From: Tubiluchus corallicola
Taxonomy: Eukaryota; Animalia; Priapulida
DNA length: 57,506 bases
Assembly (NCBI GenBank): GCA_030141605.1
Contig: JAQGDQ010002418.1
Coordinates: forward strand, 1 to 57,506
Direction: 5' to 3'
This document shows positions 32,071 through 54,044 of the stretch, piece by piece. Each line of letters opens with the position of its first letter. Within the stretch, counting starts at the first letter, position 1. The notes under the pieces are model-generated. The model made no database searches and was not told where the DNA came from. It was given only the letters and a program-made list of their open reading frames with translations. The position numbers were made by a program, and so were the translations under genes.

Positions 32071-33354
32071 ATGATAATATCTAAGGACTCTGACAAGCTA
32101 AGACAGATAGCGTCACGGGATAGGGGTGTGAATAAGGAGCATCTTGATACCGTTTCAAAGATTGTGAATGATGTTCGCACATTGGGTGATGAAGCTCTAT
32201 TTAGGTATACCCGTCAATTTGACGGATTTGACATAAATCTCGACAATGCCGTGGTGGAAGCTTCTGAGATGAAGGACTGTTTTGATGAGCTTGACGCTCC
32301 CTTGCGGGAAGCGCTCCTTGGGGCAAAAGAGAACATTGTAGACTATCAAACAAAAGCTGTTGAGAAGAGCTGGCTGGACTTCTCGGACGATGGTACCGTC
32401 CTTGGCAGCAAGGTTACTCCTCTCTCAAGGGTTGGCGTTTACATCCCAGGTGGCAGCGCTACCTATTTCTCTTCCGTTCTGATGAATGTCGTTCCCGCAA
32501 AAGTTGCCGGTGTTGAAGAGATCATAGGTGTTACCCCTGCTGTGAATGGCGAGATAAACAGATCCGTCGTGGCAGCGGCTTATATTGCGGGAGTGACTAA
32601 GTTGATCAAGATCGGTGGTGCTCAAGCTATTGCGGCTCTAGCCTACTCCACAGAGACCGTGCCTGGAGTGGAGAAGATAGTTGGCCCCGGCAACATTTAC
32701 GTGGCTCTTGCAAAGAGGATGGTTTTTGGAGATGTGGGTATAGATATGATTGCAGGGCCCAGCGAAATTGCGGTTATTGCGGATGGCTCCTCTCCGGCTA
32801 GCTTTGTGGCGGCTGATATGTTGAGTCAAGCAGAACATGACGAGTTGTCGTCAGCCATAGGGATCACTTGGGATAAGTCGTACGCAAAGCGTATCGAAAA
32901 AGAGATATATAGACAACTACAGGCTCTGCCCCGCAAAGATATAGCGTCAAAGTCCATCGAAGATAACGGTGCCATAGTTTTGGTAAAAGATCTCGCCGAG
33001 GCTATCGATGTGGCAAACTCCCTTGCTCCTGAACATCTGGAGCTCATGATAAAGAAGCCCTTTGATGTGTTAGGACAGATTAGAAACGCTGGTGCAATAT
33101 TTGTGGGCGAGTGCTCCCCGGAAGCTTTGGGGGATTACTACGCTGGCCCTAGCCACGTACTGCCCACGAACGGCAGCGCAAAGTTTGCATCTCCCTTGAG
33201 CGTCAGGGATTTTGTCAAGCACTCAAGCGTTATAAGCTACTCCAAGGAGAGGTTTCTGCGTCATATGGGTGATGTAATGCTCATGGCGGAAAGGGAAGGG
33301 TTTGAAGCTCACAAAAATTCCGTTGCGATACGTTGCATGAAGAAGGGGGAGTAA
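32071..33354 (+). CDS. hisD: Histidinol dehydrogenase
   Basis: GPGNIYV, IDMIAGPSE, SQAEHD, APEHLEL, GPSHVLPT. Confidence 0.97.
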   Translation: MIISKDSDKLRQIASRDRGVNKEHLDTVSKIVNDVRTLGDEALFRYTRQFDGFDINLDNAVVEASEMKDCFDELDAPLREALLGAKENIVDYQTKAVEKSWLDFSDDGTVLGSKVTPLSRVGVYIPGGSATYFSSVLMNVVPAKVAGVEEIIGVTPAVNGEINRSVVAAAYIAGVTKLIKIGGAQAIAALAYSTETVPGVEKIVGPGNIYVALAKRMVFGDVGIDMIAGPSEIAVIADGSSPASFVAADMLSQAEHDELSSAIGITWDKSYAKRIEKEIYRQLQALPRKDIASKSIEDNGAIVLVKDLAEAIDVANSLAPEHLELMIKKPFDVLGQIRNAGAIFVGECSPEALGDYYAGPSHVLPTNGSAKFASPLSVRDFVKHSSVISYSKERFLRHMGDVMLMAEREGFEAHKNSVAIRCMKKGE

Positions 33355-33376
33355 CAACTCCCCCTCTTGGCTTTTT
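33344..33376. terminator. Hairpin, likely bidirectional terminator between hisD and the convergent operon
   Basis: AGGGGGAGT-AACA-ACTCCCCCT perfect 9-bp stem with a T-run shortly downstream. Confidence 0.7.
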
Positions 33377-33389: not shown

Positions 33390-33581
33390 TTAGATGTTTT
33401 CCATCATATAGAATAGTAGTTGTTTGGGATCGAGATCGTTCTGTTCCGCAATCCTGTCGAGTTGCGTGAAAAATGATATGGCTTCCTCAGATACCTGATC
33501 TGCAGCTTCCCTTAACTCGTCATCTATGTCGGTTGCGTAATCTTCGTTGTATAGTTCTTCATCAAAATAGTTTGTGTTCAT
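33390..33581 (-). CDS. Small, highly acidic hypothetical protein
   Basis: 63 aa, 18 D/E versus 3 K/R; purine-rich RBS; last gene of a three-gene operon. Confidence 0.75.
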   Translation of the reverse strand: MNTNYFDEELYNEDYATDIDDELREAADQVSEEAISFFTQLDRIAEQNDLDPKQLLFYMMENI

Positions 33582-33599: not shown

Positions 33600-33986
33600 T
33601 TAATGATTTAGATGGAGAGGTCTGTATTCGCGGATCTTGTTTATTTCCGTTTTCGTATCGTCCGTTATTCTGTCCACGGATATCCTGCACTCCAGGTCTA
33701 TTAGCTCTTCTGTAAGCTTCAGATAGTTTGGATTGGGATGCCTAAGGGCGATCAGGGCACCTTTCAGCCTCTCTTTATCGAGGGTGGACTCCAAAATGAA
33801 TTCATCACTGACAACAAACTCATCGTAGTTTTCACCATTGATGACAAAATTTAGCATAAGCGTCCAATTGCCACGGTGATTCTGGAGCATTTCTGCTTCC
33901 GACACCCTTGTACTGTAAATCCCCTTTTCTAAGATCTTAAGTCCGCTTTCTTGAATCCTTGACAGGTCTAGGTTTATAACAGCCAT
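33600..33986 (-). CDS. DUF669-like phage protein (putative ssDNA-binding OB fold)
   Basis: Pattern INLD...LxxGxYxxxVxEAE...LxLxFxI...L..LxCxIxV...NxIxxY resembles DUF669; AAGGAGG RBS. Confidence 0.7.
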   Translation of the reverse strand: MAVINLDLSRIQESGLKILEKGIYSTRVSEAEMLQNHRGNWTLMLNFVINGENYDEFVVSDEFILESTLDKERLKGALIALRHPNPNYLKLTEELIDLECRISVDRITDDTKTEINKIREYRPLHLNH

Positions 33987-34032: not shown

Positions 34033-34422
34033 CTAGCTTAAAGTCTCATAAGAGAACACAGGCTTTGCCTTTTTGTAATACGTGGCATCTGCAACCCTCC
34101 TTGACAATTCTTTGTCCTTGATGTTTGACAGAAGGGAACGATTGGCAACTCTGTAGTTTGCGCTGAACAGTGTGTCAAATACCTTGGGATAATCGTTTCG
34201 GAGCTCCTCCATCTTTGTTGCGTCCCACTTTCTTATCATCTTTGCTCTTGCCTTCACCTTTGTATTCTTGGTGAATATGTGGCAAGTCGTCGATCCGTTC
34301 GGAAATGTTAAAAACTTTGTCAACTCATCCTCCATCATCCTCAATTCTTCCTGCTTCTCCCTTATGGCGACCTTCAGAAGAGACGCCCTGTCAGCCAAAT
34401 ATTCAACATCTCTTGAAATCAT
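34033..34422 (-). CDS. Phage-like hypothetical protein (coiled coil plus basic beta domain)
   Basis: GGAGGT RBS; resembles small proteins found next to DUF669/AAA_24 genes in phage recombination modules (recognition only). Confidence 0.65.
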   Translation of the reverse strand: MISRDVEYLADRASLLKVAIREKQEELRMMEDELTKFLTFPNGSTTCHIFTKNTKVKARAKMIRKWDATKMEELRNDYPKVFDTLFSANYRVANRSLLSNIKDKELSRRVADATYYKKAKPVFSYETLS

Positions 34423-34460: not shown

Positions 34461-34489
34461 ATTATATCTTCATAATGAAGATATGTCAA
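34461..34489 (-). promoter_or_regulatory. Consensus sigma70 promoter with palindromic operator in the spacer
   Basis: Minus strand reads TTGACA-TA-TCTTCA-TTA-TGAAGA-TATAAT (17-bp spacer). A perfect 10-1-10 inverted repeat spans 34464..34484. Confidence 0.9.
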
Positions 34490-34499
34490 TGGTAAAAAG

Positions 34500-34514
34500 T
34501 CGTCATTATGAAGA
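34500..34514. promoter_or_regulatory. Second operator copy (one mismatch)
   Basis: TCGTCA-TTA-TGAAGA, 33 bp from the first copy. Confidence 0.75.
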
Positions 34515-34601
34515 TTGTGTTGATTTTAAAGTGGTTGCTTTTTTTGTCGTTTTCTATATGTATATTACTTGAGTAATTTAGTATTTTATGAGGTGTTTAC
34601 G

Positions 34602-34925
34602 ATGGCTTATGGTGATGTGAGGCTAGTGAAGCTTGTATCTGGAGAGACGGTTGTTGGTGAGTATGATGAGAAGGGGGACTGTTTGTTGAAGGTGGCATCT
34701 CTTCAGGTAAATCTTAGCACCAGTGGTGCACAAATATCGGTTTTGCCTTATGGTTTCCCTTTTGAAGACAAGCCTAGCGGGAAGATATCGATGAAGAACG
34801 TTATGTTTGAGTTTGAGAAGTGTTCTCAGGAGCTCATTGATAAGTATATTGAGATGAACAGCAGTATCCGGATAGAGAAAGATCTCGGTTCTCTGCAAGG
34901 TGGAGATAGTGGATTGCTGCTGTAA
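34602..34925 (+). CDS. Hypothetical protein, possible Sm/SH3-like barrel
   Basis: GAGGTG RBS; VRLVKLVSGETVVG beta-hairpin start; stop overlaps the Nudix start. Confidence 0.75.
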   Translation: MAYGDVRLVKLVSGETVVGEYDEKGDCLLKVASLQVNLSTSGAQISVLPYGFPFEDKPSGKISMKNVMFEFEKCSQELIDKYIEMNSSIRIEKDLGSLQGGDSGLLL

Positions 34926-35467
34926 TGTCTGAACGCTGGAAGCTTCTCGACATTGAGAGGGTGTATGAAGACAATATACTCAAGGTCGAGCACCACAACT
35001 ACTATTATGAGAGGGAGAAGGGGAGCGTCTGTTTCAGCGTTGTCAATATGTTCTCTCTGGTGATAGTGGTTCCGATGTTGTCAAACGGCAATCTGTTGCT
35101 GGTTCGTCAGTTTCGCGCTGGCAGGAGTGATTTTAGCTACGAGTTTCCCGGTGGTGCTGTTGCTCCTGGTGAAGGTTTTATTAATGCCGGCGAGAGGGAG
35201 CTCTTGGAAGAGACGGGGTGCGTATCTAAAGAAATCTCATTCATAAAGGAGATTAACCCAAACCCCGCCTTTGTGAAGAGCAGGTGTGGGATAATTTTAG
35301 CAGAGAATTGCGAAACGGTTTCTGAGCTCAACCTGGACAGGTTTGAAGATATCGAGGTTGTGGAAGTATCGCCGGAAGAGCTGGAAAGGATGATCATCGA
35401 AGGAAAAATTTATCACGGTATGATGATTGCCGCTTGGTTTCTGTGCAAACTTGAAGGAAAACGATAA
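34925..35467 (+). CDS. Nudix hydrolase (ADP-ribose pyrophosphatase-like)
   Basis: Nudix box GGAVAPGEGFINAGERELLEETG; LVRQFR and NPA motifs. Confidence 0.93.
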   Translation: MSERWKLLDIERVYEDNILKVEHHNYYYEREKGSVCFSVVNMFSLVIVVPMLSNGNLLLVRQFRAGRSDFSYEFPGGAVAPGEGFINAGERELLEETGCVSKEISFIKEINPNPAFVKSRCGIILAENCETVSELNLDRFEDIEVVEVSPEELERMIIEGKIYHGMMIAAWFLCKLEGKR

Positions 35468-35505
35468 ACCCAACACCATCTGACGTTGATGTAGTCTGCG
35501 TGTAC

Positions 35506-35544
35506 GTTGAGCAGGGTCTATGTGTTTGTATCCTGTTTCGCCAT
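35506..35544 (+). repeat. Degenerate upstream copy of the hemW 5' end
   Basis: 33/40 identity to 35595..35634 (6 transitions, 1 gap). Confidence 0.8.
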
Positions 35545-35592
35545 CTTTTCACGGCGATCTTGTTTATGGTAAGTTAGCGCATCTGGAGTGTT

Positions 35593-36699
35593 ATGTTGAG
35601 CAGGGGTCTATACGTTCATATCCCGTTTTGCCATTCGAAATGCCCTTATTGTGGGTTTTACTCCATTGTCGGGGATGAAGAGTTAAAATTGATGTACGTC
35701 GATCGTTTGCTTGAAGAGATAGCATCGATTGAGAATAAGGTATTTTCCACCATATACATAGGTGGCGGCTCCCCGTCCTCTTTGGGGTGTTCCCTCATTT
35801 CTAAGCTGATCGACGGCATTTATAGCCGGATTCAATATGAAAAGGTGGAGTTTACCGTTGAGGTGAATCCAGAGAGCGTAGATGAATCGCTCGTGAAGAT
35901 ACTGGATGATTGTGGGGTTAGCAGAGTTAGCGTCGGTTTCCAAAGCTTGGATGATGATGTGTTGAGGCTACTCGGAAGGAAGCATTCTGTCAAAACAGCC
36001 CTGAAAGCTTATGATGCACTGAGGTGCGGCAGATTTGCTGTGAATCTGGATGTAATGTTTGACATTCCCACAGTGCCCCAAAGCAAGATATATCGCACAT
36101 TAGAGGATATTATCTCCCTTGAGCCTGAGCATATTTCAGCTTATTCTTACACATTTGACACAGAGCACCTATCTTCTCACTCAGAATATTGTGATGATGC
36201 TCAGCAGTATATATCCGTTGGGGGCATTTTGCGGAGTAGTTGCTACAATAGATACGAGATATCAAACTATGCTTTGACGGGTCATGAAAGTGTGCACAAC
36301 AAACTGTACTGGGAGATGAAGGAGTATATCGGTATCGGGGCGTCTGCCCATTCATCCATTTACGACCAAGCCAACAGAAGATTGCGGATGAGCAATCCTG
36401 TGGATATAAACCGTTACATGGAGAACCCTGTTGCTTATGAGGAGGTAGAGCTGCTTGAACCCTATCCGCAACTGCTTGAGACGATTATTTTTGGGCTCAG
36501 GATGGATGAGGGTGTGGATTTTGGCACTATTCAGTCTTTCTTACCTCTTAAGAGTGTGTTAGATTATGATCTGCTGCACCGCAAAATATCGAAATTAGAA
36601 AAGGATGGTTTAGCCCAATGGACAGATACAAAACTTTCACTAACGGACGCAGGCAGGTTGTTGCTGGACTCTGTTTCGGACTATTTATGGGATTTTTGA
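35593..36699 (+). CDS. hemW: Radical SAM heme chaperone HemW (HemN-like)
   Basis: LYVHIPFCHSKCPYC, YEISNY, HNKLYW, IGIGASAHS. Confidence 0.9.
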   Translation: MLSRGLYVHIPFCHSKCPYCGFYSIVGDEELKLMYVDRLLEEIASIENKVFSTIYIGGGSPSSLGCSLISKLIDGIYSRIQYEKVEFTVEVNPESVDESLVKILDDCGVSRVSVGFQSLDDDVLRLLGRKHSVKTALKAYDALRCGRFAVNLDVMFDIPTVPQSKIYRTLEDIISLEPEHISAYSYTFDTEHLSSHSEYCDDAQQYISVGGILRSSCYNRYEISNYALTGHESVHNKLYWEMKEYIGIGASAHSSIYDQANRRLRMSNPVDINRYMENPVAYEEVELLEPYPQLLETIIFGLRMDEGVDFGTIQSFLPLKSVLDYDLLHRKISKLEKDGLAQWTDTKLSLTDAGRLLLDSVSDYLWDF

Positions 36700-36974
36700 T
36701 TATATGGTCCCTGGGGGGCAACGCTATTGCCATGGGAGATGGCGGTTGTGCTGGCGACTGCTCCACATGTCACGCCGACATTGTAAATATGGAGCAGCAT
36801 CTTTCGCTACAGACGTGCATAGATTGCCACAACTCTTCCATGGAGAAAAGGGTAAGTTTTTTGCCCACTAGCGGCGGAGGATGCGGTACAAACTGCTTCG
36901 ATTGTCACAGGAAGATCCCTAAAGACAGTTATCACAAACCACTCGAGACTTGCGTTGAGTGTCACGAAAAGTAG
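36687..36974 (+). CDS. Small tetraheme c-type cytochrome
   Basis: CSTCH, CIDCH, CFDCH and CVECH after a short hydrophobic leader. Start uncertain (ORF track gives 36618). Confidence 0.85.
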   Translation: MGFLIIWSLGGNAIAMGDGGCAGDCSTCHADIVNMEQHLSLQTCIDCHNSSMEKRVSFLPTSGGGCGTNCFDCHRKIPKDSYHKPLETCVECHEK

Positions 36975-37050
36975 GTCTCGTTAAGATCAACGGGCTTGAA
37001 ATTAGCGCAATAATGAGTTAACTTTTTCTGCACGGAGAATACATTATTAG

Positions 37051-38765
37051 ATGAAAACTTTTTCGAGACTGCTGTCTTACTTTAAGAAGTACAAGCTTCT
37101 TATTGCTGTTGCCCTGTTTGCGTCAGTCATCGTCGCAATATGCGAAAGCGTCAGCATTTATATGCTAAAGCCTACCTTGGACGGTATCTTCATAGATAAG
37201 AATAAGACCCTTTTGGTGTTGTTGCCTGTTCTGTTTGTCAGTGTCAATTTTGTCAAAGTTATTGCATCATTTTTCCAGAACTATATCTTGCGCAGCGTCG
37301 GTCAGAAGGTCTTGGGAGCTTTGCGCAACGACCTGTTTGGCAAGATTGTTCACCTTCCGATAGACTTCTTTAGCAACTCATCGACCGGAGAGTTGATCTC
37401 CAGGATATTGAATGATGTAAACTCCATGCAAAATGCGGTTCCGGTCTTTGCTCTCATCATCCGAAATGTGTTAACTATTCTGGGTCTTTCCTGTGTAATC
37501 CTCTACATGAGTTGGAAGCTTGCCATCATTGCGCTGATATTTTATCCATTTTTTGTATCTCCCGTAATTCGGGTGAGTAAATATATACGTAAGTATAGTG
37601 CAAAGAGACAGGCAAAGATGGGGGACTTAAGCTCATTTATCCAGGAGACATTCAGCGGTATCCGTGTGGTGAAGTCTTTTGTTATGGAAAAATATGAAAT
37701 CGGTCGGTTTGCAAAGGAGAACGCCAAGGATGTCAGATATCGTCTGCAGGTTGTAGCCGCAAGCGCTTCCACTTCTCCCATGCTGGAGTTTGTCGGTATC
37801 TTGGGCATCAGTCTTATCATATATTTTGGCGGCACGTCATTAACGGCGCGATGACGCCGGGTGAGTTTTTTGCATTTCTTGGAGCTTTGGGTGCTATTTT
37901 TGAGCCCGTCAAGAGGGTAGCAAACAGCAACAACGCCATACAGGAAGCGCTGGCAGCAGCAGATAGGGTGTTTGAAGTGCTGGATACAGAAAACGCCATA
38001 ATTGAGAACGACGGTGATCTGGACTGTGACGCCGTGGGCAAAGATATAGTCTTTAAAGATGTGCATTTTGACTATGGCAACGGCGATGTTTTGAAGGGTA
38101 TAAACTTCACCGCAAAGAGCGGCTCCACCATAGCCCTGGTGGGTTCATCCGGCGCCGGTAAGAGTACTGTCGTAAATCTTCTAAATAGATTTTACGATGT
38201 TACAAAAGGCTCAATAACCATAGGCGGCGTAGATTTGCGGGATTACAAACTTGCTTCACTGAGAAAGAATATAGGGGTAGTTGCCCAAGATCCGTTTTTG
38301 TTTGACAATACGGTGAAATACAATATCAGCTATGGGCTGGATGAAGCGTCCGACGAGGATATACGTGCGGCGGCTATTGCCGCATATGCGGATGAGTTTA
38401 TAAACCAGCTTGAGTACGGATACAGCACCCTGATAGGCGAAAGGGGCGTTAGGATGAGTGGCGGTCAGAGGCAGAGGTTGACCATAGCAAGAGCTGTATT
38501 GAGCAATCCTCCCATACTCGTCCTCGATGAGGCTACCAGCTCCCTTGACACGGAGTCTGAAAGAATTGTACAATTAGCTTTGGAAAACTTGATGAAGGGA
38601 AGGACCTGTTTTGTGATAGCCCACAGATTGAGCACTATACTGAAGAGTGATCTGATAATCGTCCTGGATGGCGGAGCTGTCGATTCCATCGGCAAACATA
38701 GTGACCTGCTAAAGACATCTGAATTGTATAAGAAGCTCTATCAGATGCAGTTTGATAAAACATGA
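37051..38765 (+). pseudogene. msbA: Lipid A flippase MsbA-like ABC transporter, split by a frameshift near 37835 (probably sequence error)
   Basis: TMD in 37051..37854; last TM helix plus NBD (GSSGAGKST, MSGGQRQR, LDEATS, IAHRLST) in 37851..38765; in an operon with lpxK. Confidence 0.85.
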
Positions 38766-39832
38766 AGGTGCTGCACTTTGATACAGGCAGAGAATGGCGC
38801 GGCGGACAGAGGCAGGCGCTGTTTTTGCATGAGGAGCTTTTAAAGCTTGGGGTTGAGAGTAATATAGTTTGCGAGAGAGGCGGCGAATTGCTGAAAAGAG
38901 GGAACTTCATCCCCTTTTCTTGGCGAAGTGAAGTTAGCATCTCTACAGTGTTTGAATTTCTCAAGATAATAAAAGAGTATGATCCGGATGTAATACATTC
39001 TCACGGTGCCCATACCGTTACGCCTTTGCTCTTCACAAAGATCTTTAATGGCAAACCAAAATTTGTAGCCACCAGAAGAACCGACTATAGCGTTAAGAAG
39101 CCGGTTTTGGGTGCACTGAAATACGATAATCGCCACTTAGATAGCTTGGTTGCCATATCCCAGGGGGTCAAGGATATACTCACAAATGACGGTATACACC
39201 CTGATAAGATTGAGGTCATACATTCTGGAGTCAGATTGTGTGATCAGTCTTTTGATGCGAAGGCTGTGCGTCTGGAGCTTGGCGTTTCTGAAGATGAAGT
39301 CTTGATAGGTACGACACAGAATCTATCCCCACACAAAGACCACTACACTATGCTTCGGGCTTTTAACGAAGCTTGTGACGCATCGTCAAATATTAGGTTG
39401 ATCGTCGTTGGAGATGGTCCTCTTCTCGATGACGTTCGTTCATTTGCCGCAGGGTTGAAGTGTTTTGATAAGGTGATACTTACCGGTTTTAGGGAGGATG
39501 TGCATCGCATACTTTCTGCCCTTGACATATATATGGTTTCCTCCAATAAGGAGGGTCTCAACACCTCCGTAATAGATGCCATGAGCATGTCGTTGCCGAT
39601 TATTGCCACGGATATAGGGGGGTTGCCTGAGCTTGTGGGTGATGGGGAGAATGGGCTTCTCGGCGATGTCGAAGATTTTTATACGCTCGGTGAGCATATT
39701 AAGACTATGAGCCGGAACATTGAGCTGCGCCAGGAAATGGGGAAAAAGGGGCGGGAAAAAGCTTCCTTCTTTTCTGCTGAGGCCATGGGGATGAAATACT
39801 TGGAACTCTACAGGAGGTTGGTGAAATTATGA
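38762..39832 (+). CDS. Family 4 glycosyltransferase (LPS core)
   Basis: WRGGQRQ, SSNKEGLNTSVIDAM, GGLPELV. Confidence 0.92.
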   Translation: MKVLHFDTGREWRGGQRQALFLHEELLKLGVESNIVCERGGELLKRGNFIPFSWRSEVSISTVFEFLKIIKEYDPDVIHSHGAHTVTPLLFTKIFNGKPKFVATRRTDYSVKKPVLGALKYDNRHLDSLVAISQGVKDILTNDGIHPDKIEVIHSGVRLCDQSFDAKAVRLELGVSEDEVLIGTTQNLSPHKDHYTMLRAFNEACDASSNIRLIVVGDGPLLDDVRSFAAGLKCFDKVILTGFREDVHRILSALDIYMVSSNKEGLNTSVIDAMSMSLPIIATDIGGLPELVGDGENGLLGDVEDFYTLGEHIKTMSRNIELRQEMGKKGREKASFFSAEAMGMKYLELYRRLVKL

Positions 39833-40021
39833 AGCTACCTCTAACGGCTGCCTACACATCGTACAATGAAGAGGACAATATCGCTGAGCATAGGATTTTG
39901 CGTCAAATATGGCATTCTTCATTGGGTACCTGGGCCTGTGGCGGCGTTCAGCGGATTTATACATCTGTTTATGAAGTACATCTATTTGTGGGAAATTGAA
40001 AGGAACGATCGTGACGAGTAA
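39829..40021 (+). pseudogene. GT2 glycosyltransferase (WaaE/KdtX-like) remnant with a large internal deletion
   Basis: ATG overlapping the GT4 stop gives MKLPLTAAYTSYNEEDNI (GT2 N-terminal motif). Another frame then reads KYGILHWVPG...FMKYIYLWEIE (KdtX-like C-terminus) to TAA 40021. Confidence 0.7.
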
Positions 40022-40937
40022 TAACAGTAAGGTTATCTCCATTGGCAACATAGTTTTGGGTGGTACGGGGAAAACCCCCATGACCGTCAAGATTGCCCAA
40101 AAATATCTTGATGACAATAGGAGGGTCTGTATCCTATCCAGAGGTTACAAAGGCCGCCTTGAGAAGGTTACCGGCAAGAAGAATATAGTCTTGAGCGATG
40201 GCTCAACCACACATTACAGTCCTCCTGAAGCTCCGGACGAAGCTTACCTTATCGCAGACAACTGTAAAGGGGCAGTTGTGATAACGGGTAAAGACCGTAG
40301 TGCGTCTTACAAAATAGGCAGAGAGGAGTACAATAGCGAGATATTCATACTTGACGACGGTTTTCAGCATAGAGCTATGGAGAGGGATGTTGATGTCGTT
40401 TTGTTGGATTATGCAAATCCGTTTAGTTGGGGTTTTCTCTTCCCTTTCGGCTATTTGCGGGAGCTCCCGAGTGCATTGAAGAGAAGGGGAGATGTCTTTG
40501 TATTTACAAACTCCGATAAGGATGTCATTCCGGAAAGAGCGAAACCTTATGTACAGGATAAACCGCACTTTTTTGCGTTTGTAAAACCTCTATGGGTATC
40601 AATAGGCGGTAATCGTGAGGGTGTTTCCATTCTTAACGGGTTGAGGTGTTATCTCTTTTCCGGTATCGCTTCTAACAAGAGGTTTTTTAATATGGTGGAA
40701 AGTCTTGGGGCGGATATTGTGCACGCCAAAGCTCATCTTGACCACTGTAGCTACAGTCTTGCGTATCTTCTGGAAGTCGTCGGGAAGGCTGATGCTTTGG
40801 GTGTAGATATTATTCTCACAACAGAGAAGGATTTTGTGAAGATACCTGATGAGATAAAGGAAAAGTTCTCCTATCTCAAGATAGAATTGTTTTTGGATAG
40901 GGAGGGTGAATTTTTTAATGTGCTTGACGATTTTTAA
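39996..40937 (+). CDS. lpxK: Tetraacyldisaccharide 4'-kinase
   Basis: ISIGNIVLGGTGKTP, SRGYKG, LDDGFQH, TTEKD. Probable start GTG 40011. Confidence 0.95.
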   Translation: MKGTIVTSNNSKVISIGNIVLGGTGKTPMTVKIAQKYLDDNRRVCILSRGYKGRLEKVTGKKNIVLSDGSTTHYSPPEAPDEAYLIADNCKGAVVITGKDRSASYKIGREEYNSEIFILDDGFQHRAMERDVDVVLLDYANPFSWGFLFPFGYLRELPSALKRRGDVFVFTNSDKDVIPERAKPYVQDKPHFFAFVKPLWVSIGGNREGVSILNGLRCYLFSGIASNKRFFNMVESLGADIVHAKAHLDHCSYSLAYLLEVVGKADALGVDIILTTEKDFVKIPDEIKEKFSYLKIELFLDREGEFFNVLDDF

Positions 40938-40952
40938 GTCTAATGTTATCTT
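40924..40952 (+). promoter_or_regulatory. Putative sigma70 promoter of the aminotransferase gene
   Basis: TTGACG-N17-TATCTT followed by a GGAGGT RBS. Confidence 0.4.
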
Positions 40953-40985
40953 AAACGTGATTTTATATACTTTTGGAGGTGGTTC

Positions 40986-42290
40986 ATGAATGCTCTCGCG
41001 CAAGAGCTTAACGCTATGATAAAAGGGGAGAATCCTGCTGTTTACGAAATGCTTTCATCTTTGGGTAAGAGTATGTTTTTCCCAAAAGGGATCCTCACAC
41101 AGACTGCGGAGGCAAACCAGAAGGCTCACAAATTTAATGCGACGATAGGTATTGCCACAGAGAATGGCGTGCCCATGCATCTTGGATGTCTTCACGAGCC
41201 TTTGAAAGCTTTTGAACCGAAAGACCTTTTTAATTACGCTCCGGCAAGTGGCAATCCAAAACTCAGGGATGCCTGGAAGGAGAAGATGTATAGAGAAAAC
41301 CCCAACTTAAAGGGTTCAGAGGTCAGCTCTCCTGTCGTGACGAATGCTTTGACGCATGGTTTGAGTATAGTTGCGGATCTGTTTGTGGATGAGGGGGACA
41401 TGATAGTTCTTCCGGATCAGTATTGGGGCAACTATCGCCTTACGTTTGCCGTACGTTGCGGCGGTGAAATATCGGCATACAACACCTTTACGGAGGCCGG
41501 CGGATTTGATGTTGATGCTCTGCTTGCAAAGGTCAAGGAGTGCGGCACCATCAAGGGCAAGGTTGTGGTTTTGTTAAACTTCCCCAACAACCCCTCAGGA
41601 TATAGCATAACTTCCGAAGAAGCCCACAAGATAGCGGATGGATTGGCTGTTCTAGCTGAAAGCGGCATAAAGATGGTAGTCGTGACGGATGATGCTTATT
41701 TTGGGTTGTTTTACGAAGACGATGTATGTAAAGAGTCCATATTTGGGCTTTTGGTGGGTCGTTCGTCAAATCTTCTCAGCATTAAGCTCGATGGCGTTAC
41801 CAAAGAGGAGTTTGCCTGGGGCTTTAGGGTCGGTTTTATCACTTTTGGCTCCACTGGCGGCGCTCAAAGCGAGACGTTTACAGCCTTAGAGAAGAAGGTT
41901 GCAGGTCTCATCAGGGGCACTATATCGAATTGTGCCACACCGTCTCAGACATTTGTGTTGAAGGCTCTTGGGGATGACAGGCTTGAAGCCCAGAAGGCGG
42001 AAAAGTTCCAGATACTGAAAGAGAGAGCCCTTGCCGTTAAGAGTGTGCTGGGGAGCGGAAAATATGACGATGAATTTGAGAGCTACCCATTTAACTCCGG
42101 ATACTTTATGTGTATTAAGCTGAAGGGCGTCAATTCTGAAGAGTTGCGGGTGCTTTTGTTGGATAAGTATGGCGTTGGCACCATCGCAAGCGATAGTACG
42201 GATTTGCGTATAGCTTTTTCGTGCATTGAGAAGGGCGATGTTGAGGAGTTATTTGACATTGTGCGTCAGGGGTGTCTTGAGCTCAAGTGA
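40986..42290 (+). CDS. Class I/II PLP-dependent aminotransferase
   Basis: NFPNNPSG, DDAY, DGVTKEEFAWGFRVG, LRIAFS. Confidence 0.93.
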   Translation: MNALAQELNAMIKGENPAVYEMLSSLGKSMFFPKGILTQTAEANQKAHKFNATIGIATENGVPMHLGCLHEPLKAFEPKDLFNYAPASGNPKLRDAWKEKMYRENPNLKGSEVSSPVVTNALTHGLSIVADLFVDEGDMIVLPDQYWGNYRLTFAVRCGGEISAYNTFTEAGGFDVDALLAKVKECGTIKGKVVVLLNFPNNPSGYSITSEEAHKIADGLAVLAESGIKMVVVTDDAYFGLFYEDDVCKESIFGLLVGRSSNLLSIKLDGVTKEEFAWGFRVGFITFGSTGGAQSETFTALEKKVAGLIRGTISNCATPSQTFVLKALGDDRLEAQKAEKFQILKERALAVKSVLGSGKYDDEFESYPFNSGYFMCIKLKGVNSEELRVLLLDKYGVGTIASDSTDLRIAFSCIEKGDVEELFDIVRQGCLELK

Positions 42291-42443
42291 CGGGGGCTCT
42301 TCTTGACTTAGATTTTGGGTGTCGAGCACTTCAGCTGAATGTCGCGGTATGGTCTAAACTGTGGTATAGTTTATTCATCTGTTGGTGCTTGACGCTTTTT
42401 GAATTGCATTGGTAGTATATATAGTTTTGCGGGCTAGATTTTT

Positions 42444-43939
42444 ATGCATAATATTTTCGAAAGCTTTGCTGTGGACCTGAGGGTTGACTTCCATCACAAC
42501 TTTTACCTGTACAACGTTCCCAGAGAGGAGCTTTCCATGGTGGGTGAGGATGGTCTGTTGCATACCAAATCTCCCGATTGGATCAAGGAGCTGATCGCAA
42601 AGAGCCACTCTGAGGGAGTTCTGCTGTTGAGATAAATGGGTTTAGATACCACGTATTTCAGTTGAGCAGCGAGCTGTACATACTTGTCCTTGATTCTGAA
42701 GGGGCTAACCCGTTAAGAGATCTGATTTTCTCCTTTTTTAGCATGCTGACGAGGGACGGCTCTGTGGCCAATTACGAAGGCGTGGACAGAGTCGATATGT
42801 GGAATTTTGCTTCAGTGCTCAATTTCCCCGTATATGCAGTCCAGGCGGACTATGGTATAGTTGGCTATAATCCCGCTTTTCACGAATTTTTTAGTGACGA
42901 TTGCGACCTTATTGGCGATAAATGTTATCGGGTTATCTTCGGCCATGATCACCCTTGTGAAAACTGTTCTGCTAACTTCAGCATCGAAAATGAGGATGAC
43001 TACGTCTATGACAAGATAGGCATAGTCGAGAAGGATCTCAACTATTTTGATTACCGTATAGCCTGCTTTATGGAGCAGGGAGAAACGGTGGTCTACGGCA
43101 TATTGAGAGACGTCACAGAGAAGAAGATGTTCAAGGAGGAGATTGTTCAGCTCAAGAATGATGTTAAAGAGTCTGAAGAGAAACACGACTCTGTCAACGA
43201 GCTGTATGAGAATCTTGTAAATTATCACGACACATCCATCAGCAACATGAAGCTTCAGATAGGGGAATCAGAAACGCATGTCGAGGAGCTTAAAGAGGAG
43301 CTTTCTGGTGTTCGGGAGTCTTTTGAAGCCCTTAAAGGTGAGCTTGAGACTCTTACAGATAAGCACGAACAGAAAGAGAAAACCCTTAAAGAGGAGCTTG
43401 AAGAGCGTATCAGGCTAAAAGAGGAAGAGATCGAGGCGCTAAATGCCAAGTCCGGTACTGGAGAGAAGGTTAGAGAGGTTCTATCTGAGCTTGAGATGAT
43501 CAAGGATGACGCCAAGAGACAGGAAAAAGCGTATAAAGACCTCAAGAGCAGCATAAAGGAGACCTTTATAAACATCCTGTACAAGGTTAAGGATGGCTCA
43601 TTGGACGGTTCCAGCGTTAAGGCGATTATCAAGGCATTCCCTCTTGAAGAGCACAGTATCAAGCTGGTGAAGAAGAAGGTTGTGGCTAAGCCGAAGGCGA
43701 TCGATGATTTTGCTCAGGTGTTGGATGCCATAAGGGGCATGGGTGAGAAGGGAGATTTTTCTAGTATGAACTTTCATATCTTGGGCAGAATAGTGATCTT
43801 ACCTGAAGCGGAATTGATAGAGGACGGGCCTGAAGAATATGCTGCTGAAGTGATAAAGAAGCTCGTTCACAAGCACAACAATGGATACATAACGGATAGG
43901 ATCAAGCTAAAACTGCTCGAGTCTGTGGGGCTTCTGTAG
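42444..43939 (+). pseudogene. PAS-like domain plus coiled-coil protein, frameshifted near 42630
   Basis: ORF 42444..42635 continues in the next frame as EINGFRYHVFQL into 42662..43939. PAS-like YNPAF..GDKCY..PCENC..RDVTEK, then a long E/K-rich coiled coil. Confidence 0.7.
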
Positions 43940-44045
43940 TGGTGTAAGCTGCTGTGTTGGGCGTCTTTTGCGTGTAGCTATGGGCAAACACTAAGGGAGA
44001 ACTCTTTAAGGCTCCTTGTGCTGGTCCGTGAGCCCAGTCCATGTG

Positions 44046-44467
44046 GTTGTCACGTCGTCTCCTGCTTGCTAAACACATCGAGAACATACGTCATCAGAGT
44101 AGACTATACAACACTCCCTCTCGTAGTTGCTTCACGTCGTCCTGTTTCCCTAGCACGTTGAGAAGTTCGAACGTACGTCATCAGATCGCAGTTGCTTCAC
44201 GTCGTCTCCTGCTTACCTAGCACGTTGAGAAGTTCGAACATACGTCATCAGATCGCAGTTGCTTCACGTCGTCTCCTGTTTGCTAAACACATCGAGAGCA
44301 CACGTCATCAGAGTAGACTATACAACATTCCCTCTCGCAGTTGCTTCACGTCGTCTCCTGCTTGCTAAACACATCGAGAACATACGTCATCAGAGTAGAT
44401 TATACAACATTCCCTCTCGTAGTTGCTTCACGTCGTCCTGTTTTCCCAGCACGTTGAGAAGTTCGAA
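44046..44467. repeat. Mosaic tandem array derived from the 3' end of the DJ-1 gene
   Basis: ACGTCATCAGA at 44088, 44175, 44242, 44302 and 44384; GTTGCTTCACGTCGT five times plus a degenerate copy; the last unit is the gene end. Confidence 0.92.
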
Positions 44468-44941
44468 TGCAAATGCCGGTGTGGTTGCGGGGCCTCTGGA
44501 CGTCGTTATGTTGCCGTCTGTTACCACAAGGTCCTCCACATAGTTTGCACGTTTGAATTCTTCCCTGTATGCGGGGTATGACGTCAGATTCTTCCCTTTT
44601 GTTATGCCGGCAAACTCTAATATTGTGGGTGATGCGCATATTGCAGCGATATGTTTTCCATCCTTATTAAATTTCTTCAGAATCTTGATAACTTTTTCAT
44701 TACTTTTTAGATTTTCCATGCCGTCATGTCCGCCTGGAAGTATTACCATATCGTAAGCATCCTCGTTTAGGTCATCAAGCAACAGATCAGGCACTATCAT
44801 AACATTGTTCGCTCCATTGAGCATATTGCCATTAATTCCTGCAACATCAACATCTACCCCGCCCCTTCTCAATATATCCACAGTAGCTGTCGCTTCTATC
44901 TCTTCAAAACCATCCGCAAGCAGTAACACAACCTTTACCAT
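44390..44941 (-). CDS. DJ-1/YajL/PfpI family protein
   Basis: GFEEIE, LPGG, AAICASP, TTSRGP. Confidence 0.95.
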   Translation of the reverse strand: MVKVVLLLADGFEEIEATATVDILRRGGVDVDVAGINGNMLNGANNVMIVPDLLLDDLNEDAYDMVILPGGHDGMENLKSNEKVIKILKKFNKDGKHIAAICASPTILEFAGITKGKNLTSYPAYREEFKRANYVEDLVVTDGNITTSRGPATTPAFAFELLNVLGKQDDVKQLREGMLYNLL

Positions 44942-45079
44942 AAGCGACCTCCTTCTTAACGATTTGCCTCGATCCTCCCCAATATTGCGTCATTAGGTTT
45001 AGTATGTCAACCCATATGTTTGTTGACTTTGTGTTAGGATATTATAAAATAGTGGTGCGGCTGTTTTTATGGTGATCAT

Positions 45080-45943
45080 GTGAGAGTTTTATACATTTTT
45101 CTATCAGTTTCTGCGTTGTTTGCTTTTTCCGTTTTTAATATATTTGCATACGGTTTTAAGCCTTTGCCCGCCAGTATTGATCAGTACTATTCTTCGACTG
45201 ATGAGCCCAACAAGTTTATCATGCTGATGGAAGGGATAGGAATTGCAAATGTCGGGTTTAAAAAAGCCCTTGCTGCCAAGGACTATCAGGAGGCTGAAAG
45301 GTGGCTGGCGAGCTTAATGATCAACTATTTGAGTATTGGTCACATGGTTCCTGAGTGGGATGTATCGGGTGATGAGGGTCTACTTATGTCCATGCTCAAC
45401 GCTGCCAGAAATGGTAACGGTGACACCTTAGCCATCTCTCACAACTACCTTGAGAGCAGGTGCTCGTCCTGTCACGACAGTTATGCTCACGTTGTCCTGA
45501 TGAAATATGACGTGCCCCGAAGCTATGACATAATGGTGAAAAACCATACTGAAGACAGATATGTTTCTTTCAGGGAGCATATGGGGGATCTGGACGATAT
45601 GTATCTCGACATATTTACAGGTATCGCCAGGGGCGGGTGGATTGCCACAAGGATATCATATGAAAACTTCGTCAAGGGACTTGACGCCCTGCAAGACACG
45701 TGCAAGGCTTGCCACTACGATGATGGGGATGCGGCACACGACTTCTTTGATACAGACTACAACGTTACCTTGAGCAAGATCAGGTACTTTATATCCCACA
45801 ACTCGGAAGGAAGCGCCAGTTCGGAACTCAGGGGCTTAAAGCAAGACTACTGTAGAGATTGTCACACCACCCACATGGTGCCCTTGCGCGTCAGGGACGA
45901 ATTTCTAAAACAACGCTCCCCCTCAAAGCAAGCAACGGACTAA
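45080..45943 (+). CDS. Exported triheme c-type cytochrome
   Basis: Signal peptide; CSSCH, CKACH and CRDCH separated by helical-looking segments. Confidence 0.85.
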   Translation: MRVLYIFLSVSALFAFSVFNIFAYGFKPLPASIDQYYSSTDEPNKFIMLMEGIGIANVGFKKALAAKDYQEAERWLASLMINYLSIGHMVPEWDVSGDEGLLMSMLNAARNGNGDTLAISHNYLESRCSSCHDSYAHVVLMKYDVPRSYDIMVKNHTEDRYVSFREHMGDLDDMYLDIFTGIARGGWIATRISYENFVKGLDALQDTCKACHYDDGDAAHDFFDTDYNVTLSKIRYFISHNSEGSASSELRGLKQDYCRDCHTTHMVPLRVRDEFLKQRSPSKQATD

Positions 45944-46284
45944 AACGGAAAGAGAGCCCCAACGCCTAACAATACAGCCCACATGGCACCCTTGCGCGTC
46001 AGGGACGAATTTCTAAAACAACGCTCCCCTTCAAAGCAAGCAACGGACTAAAACGGAAAGAGAGCCCCAACGCCTAACAATACAGCCCACATGGCACCCT
46101 TGCGCGTCAGGGACGAACTTCTAAAACAACGCTCCCCCTCAAAGCAAGCAACGGACTAAAACGGAAAGAGAGCCCCAACGCCTAACAATACAGCCCACAT
46201 GGCACCCCTTGCGCGTCAGGGACGAACCACCACCGGTGGAGATGCCAAGAAACAGCGCCATAGGCACCCTTGCGCGTCAGGGAC
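45871..46284 (+). repeat. 108-bp tandem repeat (3 full units plus 2 partial) including the cytochrome gene's 3' end
   Basis: CCACATGG..CCCTTGCGCGTCAGGGACGAA at 45871, 45979, 46087 and 46195; a further partial copy at 46263. Confidence 0.95.
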
Positions 46285-46429
46285 TTGCTCAATCTGGGAT
46301 CATGCCATCATAAGCGCAGAAAAGCACCACTTGTGTTAGGAACGAGCCCCCCAAAGGGGGGGACCGAAGTATTCCCCGGCTGATAAGTACCGACTTGATC
46401 AGCAGATTATAGCGGATATTCCAGACAAT

Positions 46430-47188
46430 TTATTCGTTTTTCAATATTGCGAGCAGGCGCAGCACTTCCAGATATAGCCACACTAACGTGACCATGAGGG
46501 CAAATGCTCCGAACCATTCCATCTTTTTATTCATCCCACTTGCGGCGTATTTTTCGATTAAGTCAAAATCGAGGGCGAGATTAAGCGTCGCAATCCCTAT
46601 GATCGCGAGGCTGACCAATATTCCCAGCGGGCTGCTTTCGTGAAGGAAAGGGACGCTCATGCCAAAAAAGCCTAGCAGCAAGTTTAACACGTATGTGATA
46701 AATATTCCGAATGTTGCAAATATCACCATTTTTCTAAATTTATCGGTGACCACAATGACCCGAGCTTTGTACAAAACGAGCATACCGCCCAGTATGCCGA
46801 ATGTTATCATCACAGCCTGCAAAGCTATACCGGGAAAACGAAGCTCCAACATGGAGCTGACTCCCCCTAAAAACAGACCCTGACAAGCTGCGTACGCAGG
46901 AGCCGTAATATTTGCAAAAGTGGGCTTAAATATGGTAATGAGTGCAAGCACAAGACCGCCAAACAGACCTATCATCGGCAAATAGACGCCAAGTCCCTGA
47001 CTGGCCATCTCAGCAGGCATGTATGCATTGCTCATCGTTATTTTCCAAGTGTATGATGCAGAAGCGAAGACGATCAGGAGCAGAAGAGCTATCTTGTTTA
47101 TAGTTCCCTGTACGCTCATAACCTCCCCGTCTTTAGTTTGTACTCCCCTAAAAACACTGTCTTTCATAACGGGATTGTTGGACTTCAT
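46430..47188 (-). CDS. Bax inhibitor-1/YccA family membrane protein
   Basis: Seven hydrophobic segments, NLALDFDLIE, LMVTLVWLYLEVLRLL; GGAGG RBS. Confidence 0.9.
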   Translation of the reverse strand: MKSNNPVMKDSVFRGVQTKDGEVMSVQGTINKIALLLLIVFASASYTWKITMSNAYMPAEMASQGLGVYLPMIGLFGGLVLALITIFKPTFANITAPAYAACQGLFLGGVSSMLELRFPGIALQAVMITFGILGGMLVLYKARVIVVTDKFRKMVIFATFGIFITYVLNLLLGFFGMSVPFLHESSPLGILVSLAIIGIATLNLALDFDLIEKYAASGMNKKMEWFGAFALMVTLVWLYLEVLRLLAILKNE

Positions 47189-47415
47189 GTAAACCCTCCT
47201 AAAAACGGCTCTAACAAGCCTCAACAATTATATTACGTATGCATAATTTTTTCAACATTTTTTAAAAAAACTCTTTATTATCATATCTTTTTGTTGAATG
47301 AGGTCAATATATCACATATATTGCATACGTGTTGTTCAAGTTGTTGGTTTTTTAAATTTCAGATGTAAACTTGGTATCATAACTATGTATGCACTTTTTT
47401 TAGGTGGGAATTTTT

Positions 47416-48171
47416 ATGTTTGGTAGGAGGCTTAAGGCGCTCCTTGACGACAGGGGGTTGAGCCAGTCTGCGTTTGCCAAGATTTCAAATATTGACAACA
47501 AGACTTTGAATAACTACGTCAGGGAACGTCGAGATCCTAGACTAGATACGATTATCCACGTTGCAACCTGTTTAGGAGTTCCTTCGGGCTACTTTCTCGG
47601 GGATATGGAGCTTGCCGCACTCGAGAGCAAAGAGAAGAGGGAAGAGCAAAACGTTGTCAAGCAGCCAAACTTTGAGAGTGTGCCGGAGGTAGTCCTTCAT
47701 TACGGGTTGAGACCGACCTCTGATGGCAACATCCAAGATTACGTCTTCATTCCCCTTATGGAATCAAAAGCTGCAGCTTCCCCTTCGGTGATGGAAGTGT
47801 CCAATGAGAATGTCGAAGGTTGGGCATGCATTCATGCGAGCAGATTTGATAAAAATATCATAGGCGACCTCTACGCTTTTCGTGTTCGGGGTGATAGTAT
47901 GTTCCCCCTGCTCATGGATGAAGATATCGTTGCGATAATGTCTGTGGAGCAGATGGATCTATCCGAAATAAGCAAGAAAGATACCTACCTCGTGCGGCTA
48001 AAAGATCCCGCCAGCGGAGAGTACGGCTTATCGTTGAAGAGGATACATGTCCAAGATGACAACCTCCTCGTATTGGTATCAAATAATCCTGAATTTCCTC
48101 CGCTCGCCATGAGTTCCGTTGACGATTTCGCCATTATCGGCAAATTGATTTGGATGTGGCGAGAGATGTGA
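47416..48171 (+). CDS. XRE-HTH plus S24 peptidase (CI/LexA-like) repressor
   Basis: GLSQSAFAK...TLNNY...P HTH; VRGDSMFP (Ser) and LKRI (Lys); IIGKLIW end. Confidence 0.92.
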   Translation: MFGRRLKALLDDRGLSQSAFAKISNIDNKTLNNYVRERRDPRLDTIIHVATCLGVPSGYFLGDMELAALESKEKREEQNVVKQPNFESVPEVVLHYGLRPTSDGNIQDYVFIPLMESKAAASPSVMEVSNENVEGWACIHASRFDKNIIGDLYAFRVRGDSMFPLLMDEDIVAIMSVEQMDLSEISKKDTYLVRLKDPASGEYGLSLKRIHVQDDNLLVLVSNNPEFPPLAMSSVDDFAIIGKLIWMWREM

Positions 48172-48281
48172 GGATTTGTCCTTTTTGCCGAACTCGTCAC
48201 GGCTTCTAAAGTTGCCGCGTGTTTGCACTACTGACATATACAACCCGTCCCTGAAATTTCTCAATGCCGCTTTATTTGCAG

Positions 48282-48310
48282 TTGACTTGTCTTCATTTTG
48301 AAGATATAAT
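48282..48310 (+). promoter_or_regulatory. Sigma70 promoter with palindromic operator, upstream of the head operon
   Basis: TTGACT-TG-TCTTCA-TTT-TGAAGA-TATAAT (17-bp spacer); same layout as 34461..34489. Confidence 0.9.
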
Positions 48311-48463: not shown

Positions 48464-48685
48464 ATGAGTATAGTTGATGATTTTGACAGATATTTGCCTA
48501 CAAAGCGGATTCTTGCTGCATCGGATGTTGCAAGTTTCTTGAGTATTTCCGATAGAACGGTGCGGAACATGTGTTGGTCCGGCGAGTTTGAGTCGGCGAT
48601 CAAGGTGGGAAGAATGGGGCAATGGCGCATTCCCCGTCCCAGCGTGAAGTTTTATCTCGAGAAGAGACTTGAAGAATGGGATTGA
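48464..48685 (+). CDS. Excisionase/MerR-like (HTH_17) small DNA-binding protein
   Basis: LAASDVASFLSISDRTVRNM..GEF..AIKVG...WRIP; GGAGG RBS before ATG 48464. Confidence 0.85.
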   Translation: MSIVDDFDRYLPTKRILAASDVASFLSISDRTVRNMCWSGEFESAIKVGRMGQWRIPRPSVKFYLEKRLEEWD

Positions 48686-48710: not shown

Positions 48711-50066
48711 ATGGGGGATGGATTTTTCATAGTTGAGAGGTACTATAACGATCCTGTAGGCTATGTGAGGGATATTCTCAAGGCTGAGCCTGACGACTGG
48801 CAAAAGGATGTGTTAAACTCCCTAATTACCTCAAGCAGGATAGCCGTAGCTTCGGGACATGGTGTCGGTAAAACGGCACTTTCTTCCTTTATCATTCATT
48901 GGTTCATATCAACCCGCCCAAATCTTCAAGGTGTTGTAACTGCAAACACAAAAAATCAACTGGACACAAAAACTTGGCGTGAACTGGCAAAGTGGAACAA
49001 ACGAGCTCTAAACGGTCATTGGTTCGGTTACACAAGCACAAAGTTTTATCTGAAGGACAGTCCTGACACCTGGTTTGTGGCTTCTATCCCCTGGAGCGAA
49101 CGTAGTCCCGAAGCCTTTGCCGGCACTCACGATGAGCATGTTTTAATAATATTTGACGAAGCTTCCGCTATTTCTGACACCATATGGGATGTGACGGAAG
49201 GGGCGATGACGAGCGGTGGTGCCCGTTGGGTAGTTTTTGGCAATCCGACGAGAAATTCGGGCAGATTTTGGGAGTGTTTCGGCAAGTTTCGCCACAGATG
49301 GAAGACCTATCACATAGACTCAAGAAACACAAATCTTGCAAATTTTGAACAGATAAACAGCTGGGTGGAGGATTACGGTGAGGATTCTGATTTTGTCAGG
49401 GTTCGCGTAAAGGGGGAGTTCCCCAGAGCTGGGGTGAATCAGTTTATATCTGATGAAGTTGTGGAGCGTTGTATCTCTTGCAATCTAGATGAGAGGGATT
49501 ACAGGGGTTATACGGTTGTTTTGGGTGTGGACGTTGCCCGTTATGGGGACGATTGCAGTGTTATCGTGAAGCGCTGCGGGGCAAAGGTGTACACACCTAT
49601 CCGCTACAGGGGGATCGACACTATGAGTTTTGCCGCGCACATCTTCGATGAATGGAGGAGGAGCGGGGCTGAGGCGATATTTGTGGATGGCTGTGGCGTC
49701 GGTGGCGGGGTTGTTGATAGATTGAGCCAACTTGATTTGCCGGTTTATGACGTTCAGAGCGGCTCAACCCCAAGCGATAAACGTCAATATGCCAATATGA
49801 GGGCGGAACTTTGGTCCAGGATGAAAGAGTTTTTGGAATTGTCAGATGTCGATCTGCCATCAGACAGAGTATTGCGGGATGAATTGACCTGCTTGACGTA
49901 TGGCTACAATAGCATGTTGCAACTGCAACTTGAGCGGAAAGAGGATTTAAAGAAACGGGGCTTGTCCTCTGTAGATAGTGCAGATGCTTTGTCATTCACA
50001 TTTATGGATTTTGAGAGAAGGAACAAGTACGGCGCAAGACCCGTCTGTTCATCCGGAAAATGGTAG
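48711..50066 (+). CDS. Phage terminase large subunit
   Basis: Walker A SGHGVGKT, Walker B IIFDEAS, FGNP, RNase H-like LGVDVAR, VDGCGVG and DSADAL. Confidence 0.95.
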   Translation: MGDGFFIVERYYNDPVGYVRDILKAEPDDWQKDVLNSLITSSRIAVASGHGVGKTALSSFIIHWFISTRPNLQGVVTANTKNQLDTKTWRELAKWNKRALNGHWFGYTSTKFYLKDSPDTWFVASIPWSERSPEAFAGTHDEHVLIIFDEASAISDTIWDVTEGAMTSGGARWVVFGNPTRNSGRFWECFGKFRHRWKTYHIDSRNTNLANFEQINSWVEDYGEDSDFVRVRVKGEFPRAGVNQFISDEVVERCISCNLDERDYRGYTVVLGVDVARYGDDCSVIVKRCGAKVYTPIRYRGIDTMSFAAHIFDEWRRSGAEAIFVDGCGVGGGVVDRLSQLDLPVYDVQSGSTPSDKRQYANMRAELWSRMKEFLELSDVDLPSDRVLRDELTCLTYGYNSMLQLQLERKEDLKKRGLSSVDSADALSFTFMDFERRNKYGARPVCSSGKW

Positions 50067-53962: not shown

Positions 53963-54008
53963 GTGCTTATCTGACCTTTTGCGTGAAGTGATTATTGAAC
54001 TGAAACGG

Positions 54009-54044
54009 AAGAGCTTTGTCGTCATCGACGGAAGCTCTTTTTTT
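54009..54044 (+). terminator. Rho-independent terminator after the capsid gene
   Basis: AAGAGCTT.GTCG-TCAT-CGAC..AAGCTCTT stem followed by a T-run. Confidence 0.8.

Follow-up and report, generated by a model that had tools for sequence, protein, structure and literature searches.

One promoter-operator unit before a pared-down podophage head operon and before a second, smaller operon: a candidate gene transfer agent-like variant in a Deferribacterota bacterium

Gene transfer agents (GTAs) are described as resembling remnant phages split over small loci (PMC11841831, PMC9953437); by gene content they are reported to be indistinguishable from dead prophages, and their scattered loci are hard to link to one another (PMC11841831). 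In the published descriptions, RcGTA and Desulfovibrio Dd1 hold packaging and structural genes only, split over loci of which some contain one to three genes (PMC6854486, PMC11841831), and known GTAs carry, directly before terL, a short helical terminase small subunit (terS) that has no DNA-binding domain (PMC6854486). The Caulobacter agent (CcGTA) is described as a set of domesticated head and packaging genes silenced by a helix-turn-helix (HTH) repressor, RogA, on inverted repeats over the core promoter; RogA lacks catalytic residues and acts via the activators GafYZ at GGAA-N4-TTCC (PMC9632790). In the account of the Bartonella agent (BaGTA), the DNA-metabolism and capsid modules lie at separate loci, are expressed together and are coupled by the antiterminator BrrG (10.1101/2024.11.20.624540). 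Here we describe a candidate GTA-like variant in which one promoter-operator unit stands both before a pared-down head operon (locus B) and before a small second operon (locus A). The two lie in a 57,506-nt stretch of a single genome, contig JAQGDQ010002418.1 of an assembly filed under Tubiluchus corallicola (GCA_030141605.1), which we call the window; statements of absence on the window apply to that stretch. We assign the sequence to a Deferribacterota bacterium because its FliM shares 75-77% identity with its best relatives, of which the named ones are Deferribacteraceae metagenome-assembled genomes (MAGs), Limisalsivibrio and Deferribacter.

Promoter A lies on the minus strand at 34489..34461, reads TTGACA TA TCTTCA TTA TGAAGA TATAAT and matches the consensus at 12 of 12 positions. 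Promoter B lies on the plus strand at 48282..48310, reads TTGACT TG TCTTCA TTT TGAAGA TATAAT and matches at 11 of 12. The two are identical at 26 of 29 positions, and their mismatches (positions 6, 8 and 17) all fall outside the palindrome arms and the -10 element. In both promoters the spacer is taken up by the palindrome TCTTCA-N3-TGAAGA, which runs as far as the -10, with one copy at 34467..34481 and the other at 48290..48304, and from this position we infer that it is an operator. A second copy at locus A, with one mismatch, occupies 34500..34514, which places it 33 bp (centre-to-centre, about three helical turns) upstream of the copy in promoter A. An earlier, sequence-only reading of this DNA had reported both promoter sequences, the equal placement of the palindrome in their spacers, the third copy and the housekeeping genes between the loci. 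On re-reading, all of these were confirmed: the third copy is present with its one mismatch, and the intervening 13.8 kb consist of ordinary host genes. The same reading's proposal of an operator-in-spacer design common to two loci is supported as well.

Allowing at most one mismatch, the motif occurs four times in the window against 0.33 occurrences expected, and none of 100 shuffles reached four, although this count was made post hoc; the fourth match, at 2907, lies within cheA. Recurrence alone is not rare, as perfect 6-bp inverted repeats gave five recurring pairs among 172, and the signal of the motif comes from its register, in the shared spacer bases. Five promoter-like sites in the window match the consensus at 11 or more of 12 positions, and two of these have 15 of 17 spacer bases in common, for which we calculate about 9e-7 per pair. 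The TCTTCA-N3-TGAAGA feature also forms the longest inverted repeat in 33000-57506 (36 nt, 83%). The shared promoter-operator feature is real, and its identity and register are far beyond chance.

A box shared by two operons could also belong to a DNA-damage repressor of the host, either LexA or a phage-like substitute, with the two loci as members of a wider SOS-type regulon; this would be compatible with either history of the head genes considered below. Locus A encodes a protein resembling single-strand DNA-binding protein (SSB), no cognate repressor is evident beside either box, and phage-like S24 repressors are described as running SOS regulons in Bacteroidetes, on palindromes of the dyad-spacer type (PMC8565304), all of which fit such a regulon. 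Against it, all three intergenic copies in the 57.5 kb stand at phage-derived genes and none stands before polA, the window's only DNA-repair gene, and our literature searches turned up no SOS box (nor any GTA) for Deferribacterota. Genes for recA, lexA, uvr or an error-prone polymerase do not occur in the window. We regard a host SOS-type box as improbable.

The phage origin of locus B is firm, and the terminase-portal-capsid operon that the sequence-only reading had placed behind the second promoter is borne out. Promoter B is followed, on the plus strand, by genes for an HTH_17 protein, the large terminase subunit, the portal, a small protein, a scaffold and the capsid, and then by a terminator; all are intact, and the head genes are full length and have their catalytic motifs and ribosome-binding sites. 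The HTH_17 protein (48464..48685, 73 aa; PF12728, E 3e-9; TIGR01764 below cut-off) is excisionase-like, and its gene holds the position of terS in related phages, where terS precedes terL (L060 and L113). TerL (48711..50066; phrog_2, E 3e-48) keeps the Walker A, Walker B and acidic nuclease residues in the alignment, and packaging is likely to be of the headful type because the best annotated relatives of terL include P22-like Lederbergvirus terminases (38%). The portal is of the podovirus type (SU10_portal, 50106..52070; PF23899, E 8e-14). Behind it lie a small head-module gene of 75 aa (52081..52308), with weak syntenic matches in three related phage loci (L056, L085 and L092), and a likely scaffold gene of 215 aa (52381..53028; phrog_13678, E 3e-18), whose counterparts in L113 and L060 have 329-378 aa. 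The major capsid protein is full length (53054..53962; phrog_267, E 4e-52), with best relatives at 60-61% and a profile match to capsid 8e16 at E 1e-29. An intrinsic terminator ends the operon (54007..54043, plus strand; fold z -2.9), and a contig at 53473-54285 bridges the junction to the next gene, which is on the opposite strand. The 147-nt leader of the operon is unstructured, folding no better than shuffled sequence (z +1.2), and an attenuator of the BaGTA type in this leader is thus not supported.

The nearest phage is a temperate podophage of Denitrovibrio (L063/G008; IMGVR_UViG_3300007102_000012, a 52.6-kb contig), whose capsid is annotated in a Denitrovibrio MAG. It shares 56% identity in terL, 43% in the portal and 56% in the capsid, and its terL, portal, scaffold and capsid belong to the same families and stand in the same order. 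Unlike the window, the phage also has terS, SU10 adaptors, further structural and lysis-like genes, an integrase, RecT and a divergent cI/cro pair. An HTH-like gene 3.5 kb before its terL gave no alignment with the HTH_17 gene. In its genome (L114:6550-19812, G008) a 4420-aa open reading frame (ORF) follows the structural genes, and the portal frame is interrupted in the contig. In the terL tree (8 rows) the window protein forms a clade with the Denitrovibrio phage and one other phage at a support of 100/100, and in the capsid tree it groups with the Denitrovibrio phage only at 86, unstarred. The portal tree was a quick tree from which L063, which has a stop codon in this gene, and near-duplicate rows were left out. 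Scanning genome contigs with the capsid protein returned seven loci, none from Deferribacterota; a search of three such genomes with terL returned nothing and is uninformative.

What sets the window apart from these phages is how little surrounds the head genes. Genes for terS, adaptors, tail, lysis and integrase are absent from it, without remnants. We compared 1218 open frames from 14 related phage loci with the window; beyond the head operon they matched nothing except the CI-like gene discussed below, in its S24 part and at 27%, and this search found no remnant of terS or of an adaptor. The 60 ORFs scanned included no integrase, the 20 direct-repeat families shown contained no pair resembling att sites, and no primase or helicase was seen in the window. 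In all 45 related loci with 1.5 kb of sequence beyond the capsid gene, which are not independent of one another, a same-strand frame of at least 135 aa follows, whereas the window stops at the terminator. It thus has intact packaging and capsid genes of phage type in a structural locus without integration or replication genes, as GTAs do, and it lacks the single block of integrase, att sites and full gene set that marks an inducible prophage. Packaging and structural genes alone, split over loci, have been described for RcGTA and Dd1 (PMC6854486, PMC11841831), the likeness to Dd1 being one of description; unlike these, the window has an HTH_17 gene in the position of terS.

Capsid-forming phage satellites carry an integrase, a primase-helicase and their own terS on a mobile island, and none of these traits was found here. 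A tailless head system could nevertheless borrow its neck and tail from a helper phage as such satellites do, or its heads, DNA-filled or empty, could interfere with related phages. The terminator directly after the capsid gene and the existence of a related temperate phage in the same phylum would suit such a system, but there is no satellite integrase, primase or att site, and in the window even the head-completion adaptors are absent. We consider a tailless system improbable.

A second history for the same genes is that of a grounded prophage, broken by deletion or rearrangement, in which the two promoters are the inherited early left and right promoters and the head genes survive from recency, without host selection. 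In the control regions of temperate phages, promoters diverge towards recombination genes on one side and an excisionase-like gene on the other, P2 Cox and 186 Apl being examples of the latter. The two promoters here likewise diverge: genes of recombination type stand behind one, and the first gene behind the other is excisionase-like. The closest relatives of the head genes are temperate phages of the same phylum, and no orthologous cluster was seen in another genome. On the other side, no pseudogene, fragment or att site was found in or around either locus, 13.8 kb of host genes separate the two, and terL and capsid have diverged by about 44% from the nearest phage and yet are fully intact. 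On this evidence a grounded prophage is unlikely, although it is the history that has to be weighed most closely against domestication, and conservation is what separates the two.

Locus A runs on the minus strand from promoter A. Its first gene (34033..34422) encodes a 129-aa DUF7173/phrog_2480-like protein (phrog_2480, E 0.004; PF23791, E 0.024) that scored 0.96 against two mostly viral clusters of the ESM Atlas, at a recognition value of 2228, under the tool's mark of 2300; its model shows a long N-terminal helix (4-38) at a mean predicted local distance difference test (pLDDT) score of 51. A search with phrog_2480 had no match in any of 5 records or of 14 controls and is uninformative. The second gene (33600..33986) encodes a 128-aa DUF669-like protein, likely a phage SSB (PF05037, E 0.0012; phrog_378 SSB, E 0.0044), whose single-sequence fold was uninformative (pLDDT 37); the folds of both proteins were too poor for a fold search. 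The third (33390..33581) has a ribosome-binding site and encodes an acidic peptide of 63 aa, with 18 D/E against 3 K/R and a weak DUF6015 match (E 0.027), and it is possibly a DNA mimic or an anti-repressor. The locus ends at a terminator-like hairpin common to it and hisD (33344..33365, both strands; fold z -3.6). We consider an origin of locus A in a phage recombination module likely. The sequence-only reading had spoken of a DUF669-like operon and of two phage-derived loci. The operon behind promoter A stands, while the DUF669 match stays below threshold (19.4 bits against a cut-off of 21), and phage derivation is firm for locus B and tentative for locus A. The box is common to two loci of the window. 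Two putative modules at separate loci recall the published account of BaGTA; unlike BaGTA, the coupling here would lie in a shared operator, and no replication module was seen in the window (10.1101/2024.11.20.624540). The gene divergent from locus A (34602-34925) has a phrog_527 match (E 3e-6) and heads a run of host genes; it may or may not respond to the third operator copy.

The sequence-only reading had named as repressor the protein encoded next to promoter B, a CI-like protein with HTH_3 and S24 domains (47416..48171, plus strand), and the evidence mostly turns away from it. In support of such a master repressor of both loci, as RogA is on the Caulobacter GTA, its gene lies 110 bp before promoter B and between both promoters, it is like RogA, as described, in joining HTH and S24 domains and in its altered cleavage site (PMC9632790), and the operators of its family likewise adjoin the -10. 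However, its own upstream region has no TCTTCA or TGAAGA half-site. The divergent control region of the gene (47227..47394) instead holds a leftward promoter matching at 11 of 12 positions (47255..47227), which faces a YccA/BaxI-like gene, and three AYGTATGCA sites at 47235, 47321 and 47385, of which the first is in the spacer of the leftward promoter (0 of 150 shuffles). The stretch 47189-47415 thereby has the look of a divergent switch of the lambda type, with a membrane stress gene (YccA/BaxI-like) on its far side.

The protein belongs to a small family, of which 8 proteins match at E <= 1e-30, including two multi-HTH repeats. The members with a name come from the Deferribacterota genera Geovibrio and Seleniivibrio, an organism name being given in 2 of the 10 clusters looked up. 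The Ser-Lys dyad (S161 and K208) is invariant in all 15 aligned sequences, and the scissile site is Ala-Ser/Thr in 14 of them and Ala-Gly in one; in the window protein Ala-Ser replaces the scissile Ala-Gly, and no Ala-Gly or Cys-Gly dipeptide occurs anywhere. Of the 30 metagenome loci that the family profile returned, seven hold close members (33-41%), and they lie amid restriction, nuclease and toxin-antitoxin-like genes, with an adjacent head gene in none of the seven. The upstream region was readable in six of these loci, which are close relatives and not independent: four combine one recognition helix with TAACC-N4-GGTTA in the spacer of their own promoter, and in the two with other recognition helices the palindrome is changed or absent. 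None of the 22 viral loci found with the family profile has the family signature, and no relatives were found on plasmids. The family seems to autoregulate, which points to AYGTATGCA as the CI-like protein's own site; it probably binds this motif and controls itself and the YccA-like gene, and its membership in the regulon of loci A and B is doubtful.

The seven family loci show further regularities of their own. Their S24 gene encodes Ala-Thr at the scissile position, stands first in gene sets that resemble defence islands (L118:9974-10717, L119, L120, L121, L122, L123 and L141) and appears leaderless, and the recognition helix and the own-promoter palindrome change together. Just downstream of the gene, five of the seven have a palindrome of the TGCATA-N7-TATGCA type, one with a single mismatch.

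For the binder of TCTTCA-N3-TGAAGA we therefore lean slightly towards a repressor that is not linked to the window's loci; the adjacent CI-like protein is a rather doubtful candidate, and the HTH_17 protein a poor one. The comparison with the described CcGTA/RogA system runs in two directions (PMC9632790). The proposed logic of an HTH repressor on an inverted repeat is alike, as is a nearby HTH plus S24 protein off the cleavable consensus. Unlike CcGTA, the head operon and a second locus bear the box themselves, and the head is of the podovirus type. The S24 protein here retains Ser-Lys but not Ala-Gly, and its site is probably a different motif.

Our best explanation, which we hold with moderate confidence, is that the two operons are likely co-repressed parts of a dispersed, domesticated, GTA-like podophage head system, that the gene for their repressor likely lies in another part of the genome, and that the loci are likely switched on together. 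A dimeric HTH repressor bound to the spacer would block RNA polymerase at two strong sigma-70 promoters, with two phased dimers at locus A. Its release, probably in a small fraction of the population, would lead to the making of proheads, which would be filled by the headful-type terminase; with no pac-recognising terS alongside, packaging of non-specific host DNA would be favoured. The SSB-like and DUF7173-like proteins may protect or process the cut DNA. The two promoters are probably derived from the ancestral prophage's early left and right promoters, a deletion having put the head genes under the right one, and we predict that genes for neck, tail and lysis stand at further loci marked by the same box.

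The sequence-only reading had likewise proposed a dispersed domesticated phage system. The pared-down, intact head operon without an integrase is consistent with domestication, and the part of the proposal that finds no support is control by the adjacent repressor. Several observations weigh against a domesticated GTA-like system. The evidence comes from one genome. The position before terL is taken by the HTH_17 gene, with no similarity to terS anywhere in the window, instead of by a short terS without a DNA-binding domain, and no neck, tail or lysis gene was seen in the 57.5 kb. The family matches of locus A all lie under the curated cut-offs, and no relatives of locus A were found in phage collections. 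The strict motif had no match in metagenome contigs, and no promoter-type copy of the box occurs in the Denitrovibrio phage. The capsid end branch, 0.64 against 0.52 in phage neighbours, is close to these, and the capsid search returned no group closer than 61%, a result that fits a recently grounded prophage equally. A motif scan of viral contigs gave two matches, neither with a -35 element and one inside an ORF. Partly on account of the terS position we do not file the system as a GTA.

The DNA was traced to one sample, as DNA contigs, and no RNA data set containing it was listed. Short-read contigs of this sample cover both loci at a depth similar to that of host genes, and contigs bridge 33301-34588, 46416-48332 and 53473-54285. 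These join locus B to host sequence on both sides and locus A to hisD; misassembly at the borders of locus B is thereby ruled out. Among the contigs listed, none spans 48332-48359, 34588-34600 or the whole 14 kb. The codon use of the phage-derived genes is within the host range, in a weak test that separated phage controls poorly. None of 10 window proteins was present in a collection of 15 billion proteins, no tRNA genes were seen in the window, and no Rfam families in 33000-57506.

Other features of the window concern the assembly and its host genes. Contigs in runs X1 and X2 have loose ends within terL, at 49041 and 49915, each with a local rise in depth, which suggests that the sample contains a further sequence, covered more deeply, that has short stretches in common with terL. 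The msbA-like ABC transporter gene (37051-38765) is split into two ORFs, and a short-read contig differs there by an indel, which makes an assembly error the probable cause of the break. Small indels at several other places suggest a long-read assembly. The flhB gene (13867-14772) is short, with 301 aa and the profile covered to 272 of 335, perhaps from an assembly indel. The nuo operon (17138-26758) has only B, C, D, H, I, J, K, L, M and N-like genes, with no A, E, F or G match among the scanned ORFs. Three near-identical 108-bp repeat units lie between the cytochrome c and YccA-like genes (45866-46284), and short duplicated segments lie downstream of the DJ-1/PfpI gene (44050-44467).

For loci of this kind, a shared operator would provide a handle at the level of sequence: it predicts the sites of other modules and which repressor to remove for production. 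If the head genes are only those of a broken prophage, the window would be a modest example of inherited operators surviving rearrangement. We also propose, tentatively, that Deferribacterota have an independently evolved, podovirus-derived gene transfer agent, one that has lost terS entirely, expresses its head genes from a simple repressed sigma-70 promoter and links its dispersed modules through one palindromic operator. If true, this would mean an independent origin of a GTA from a podophage in a phylum of anaerobes, under a control simpler than that of CcGTA or BaGTA.

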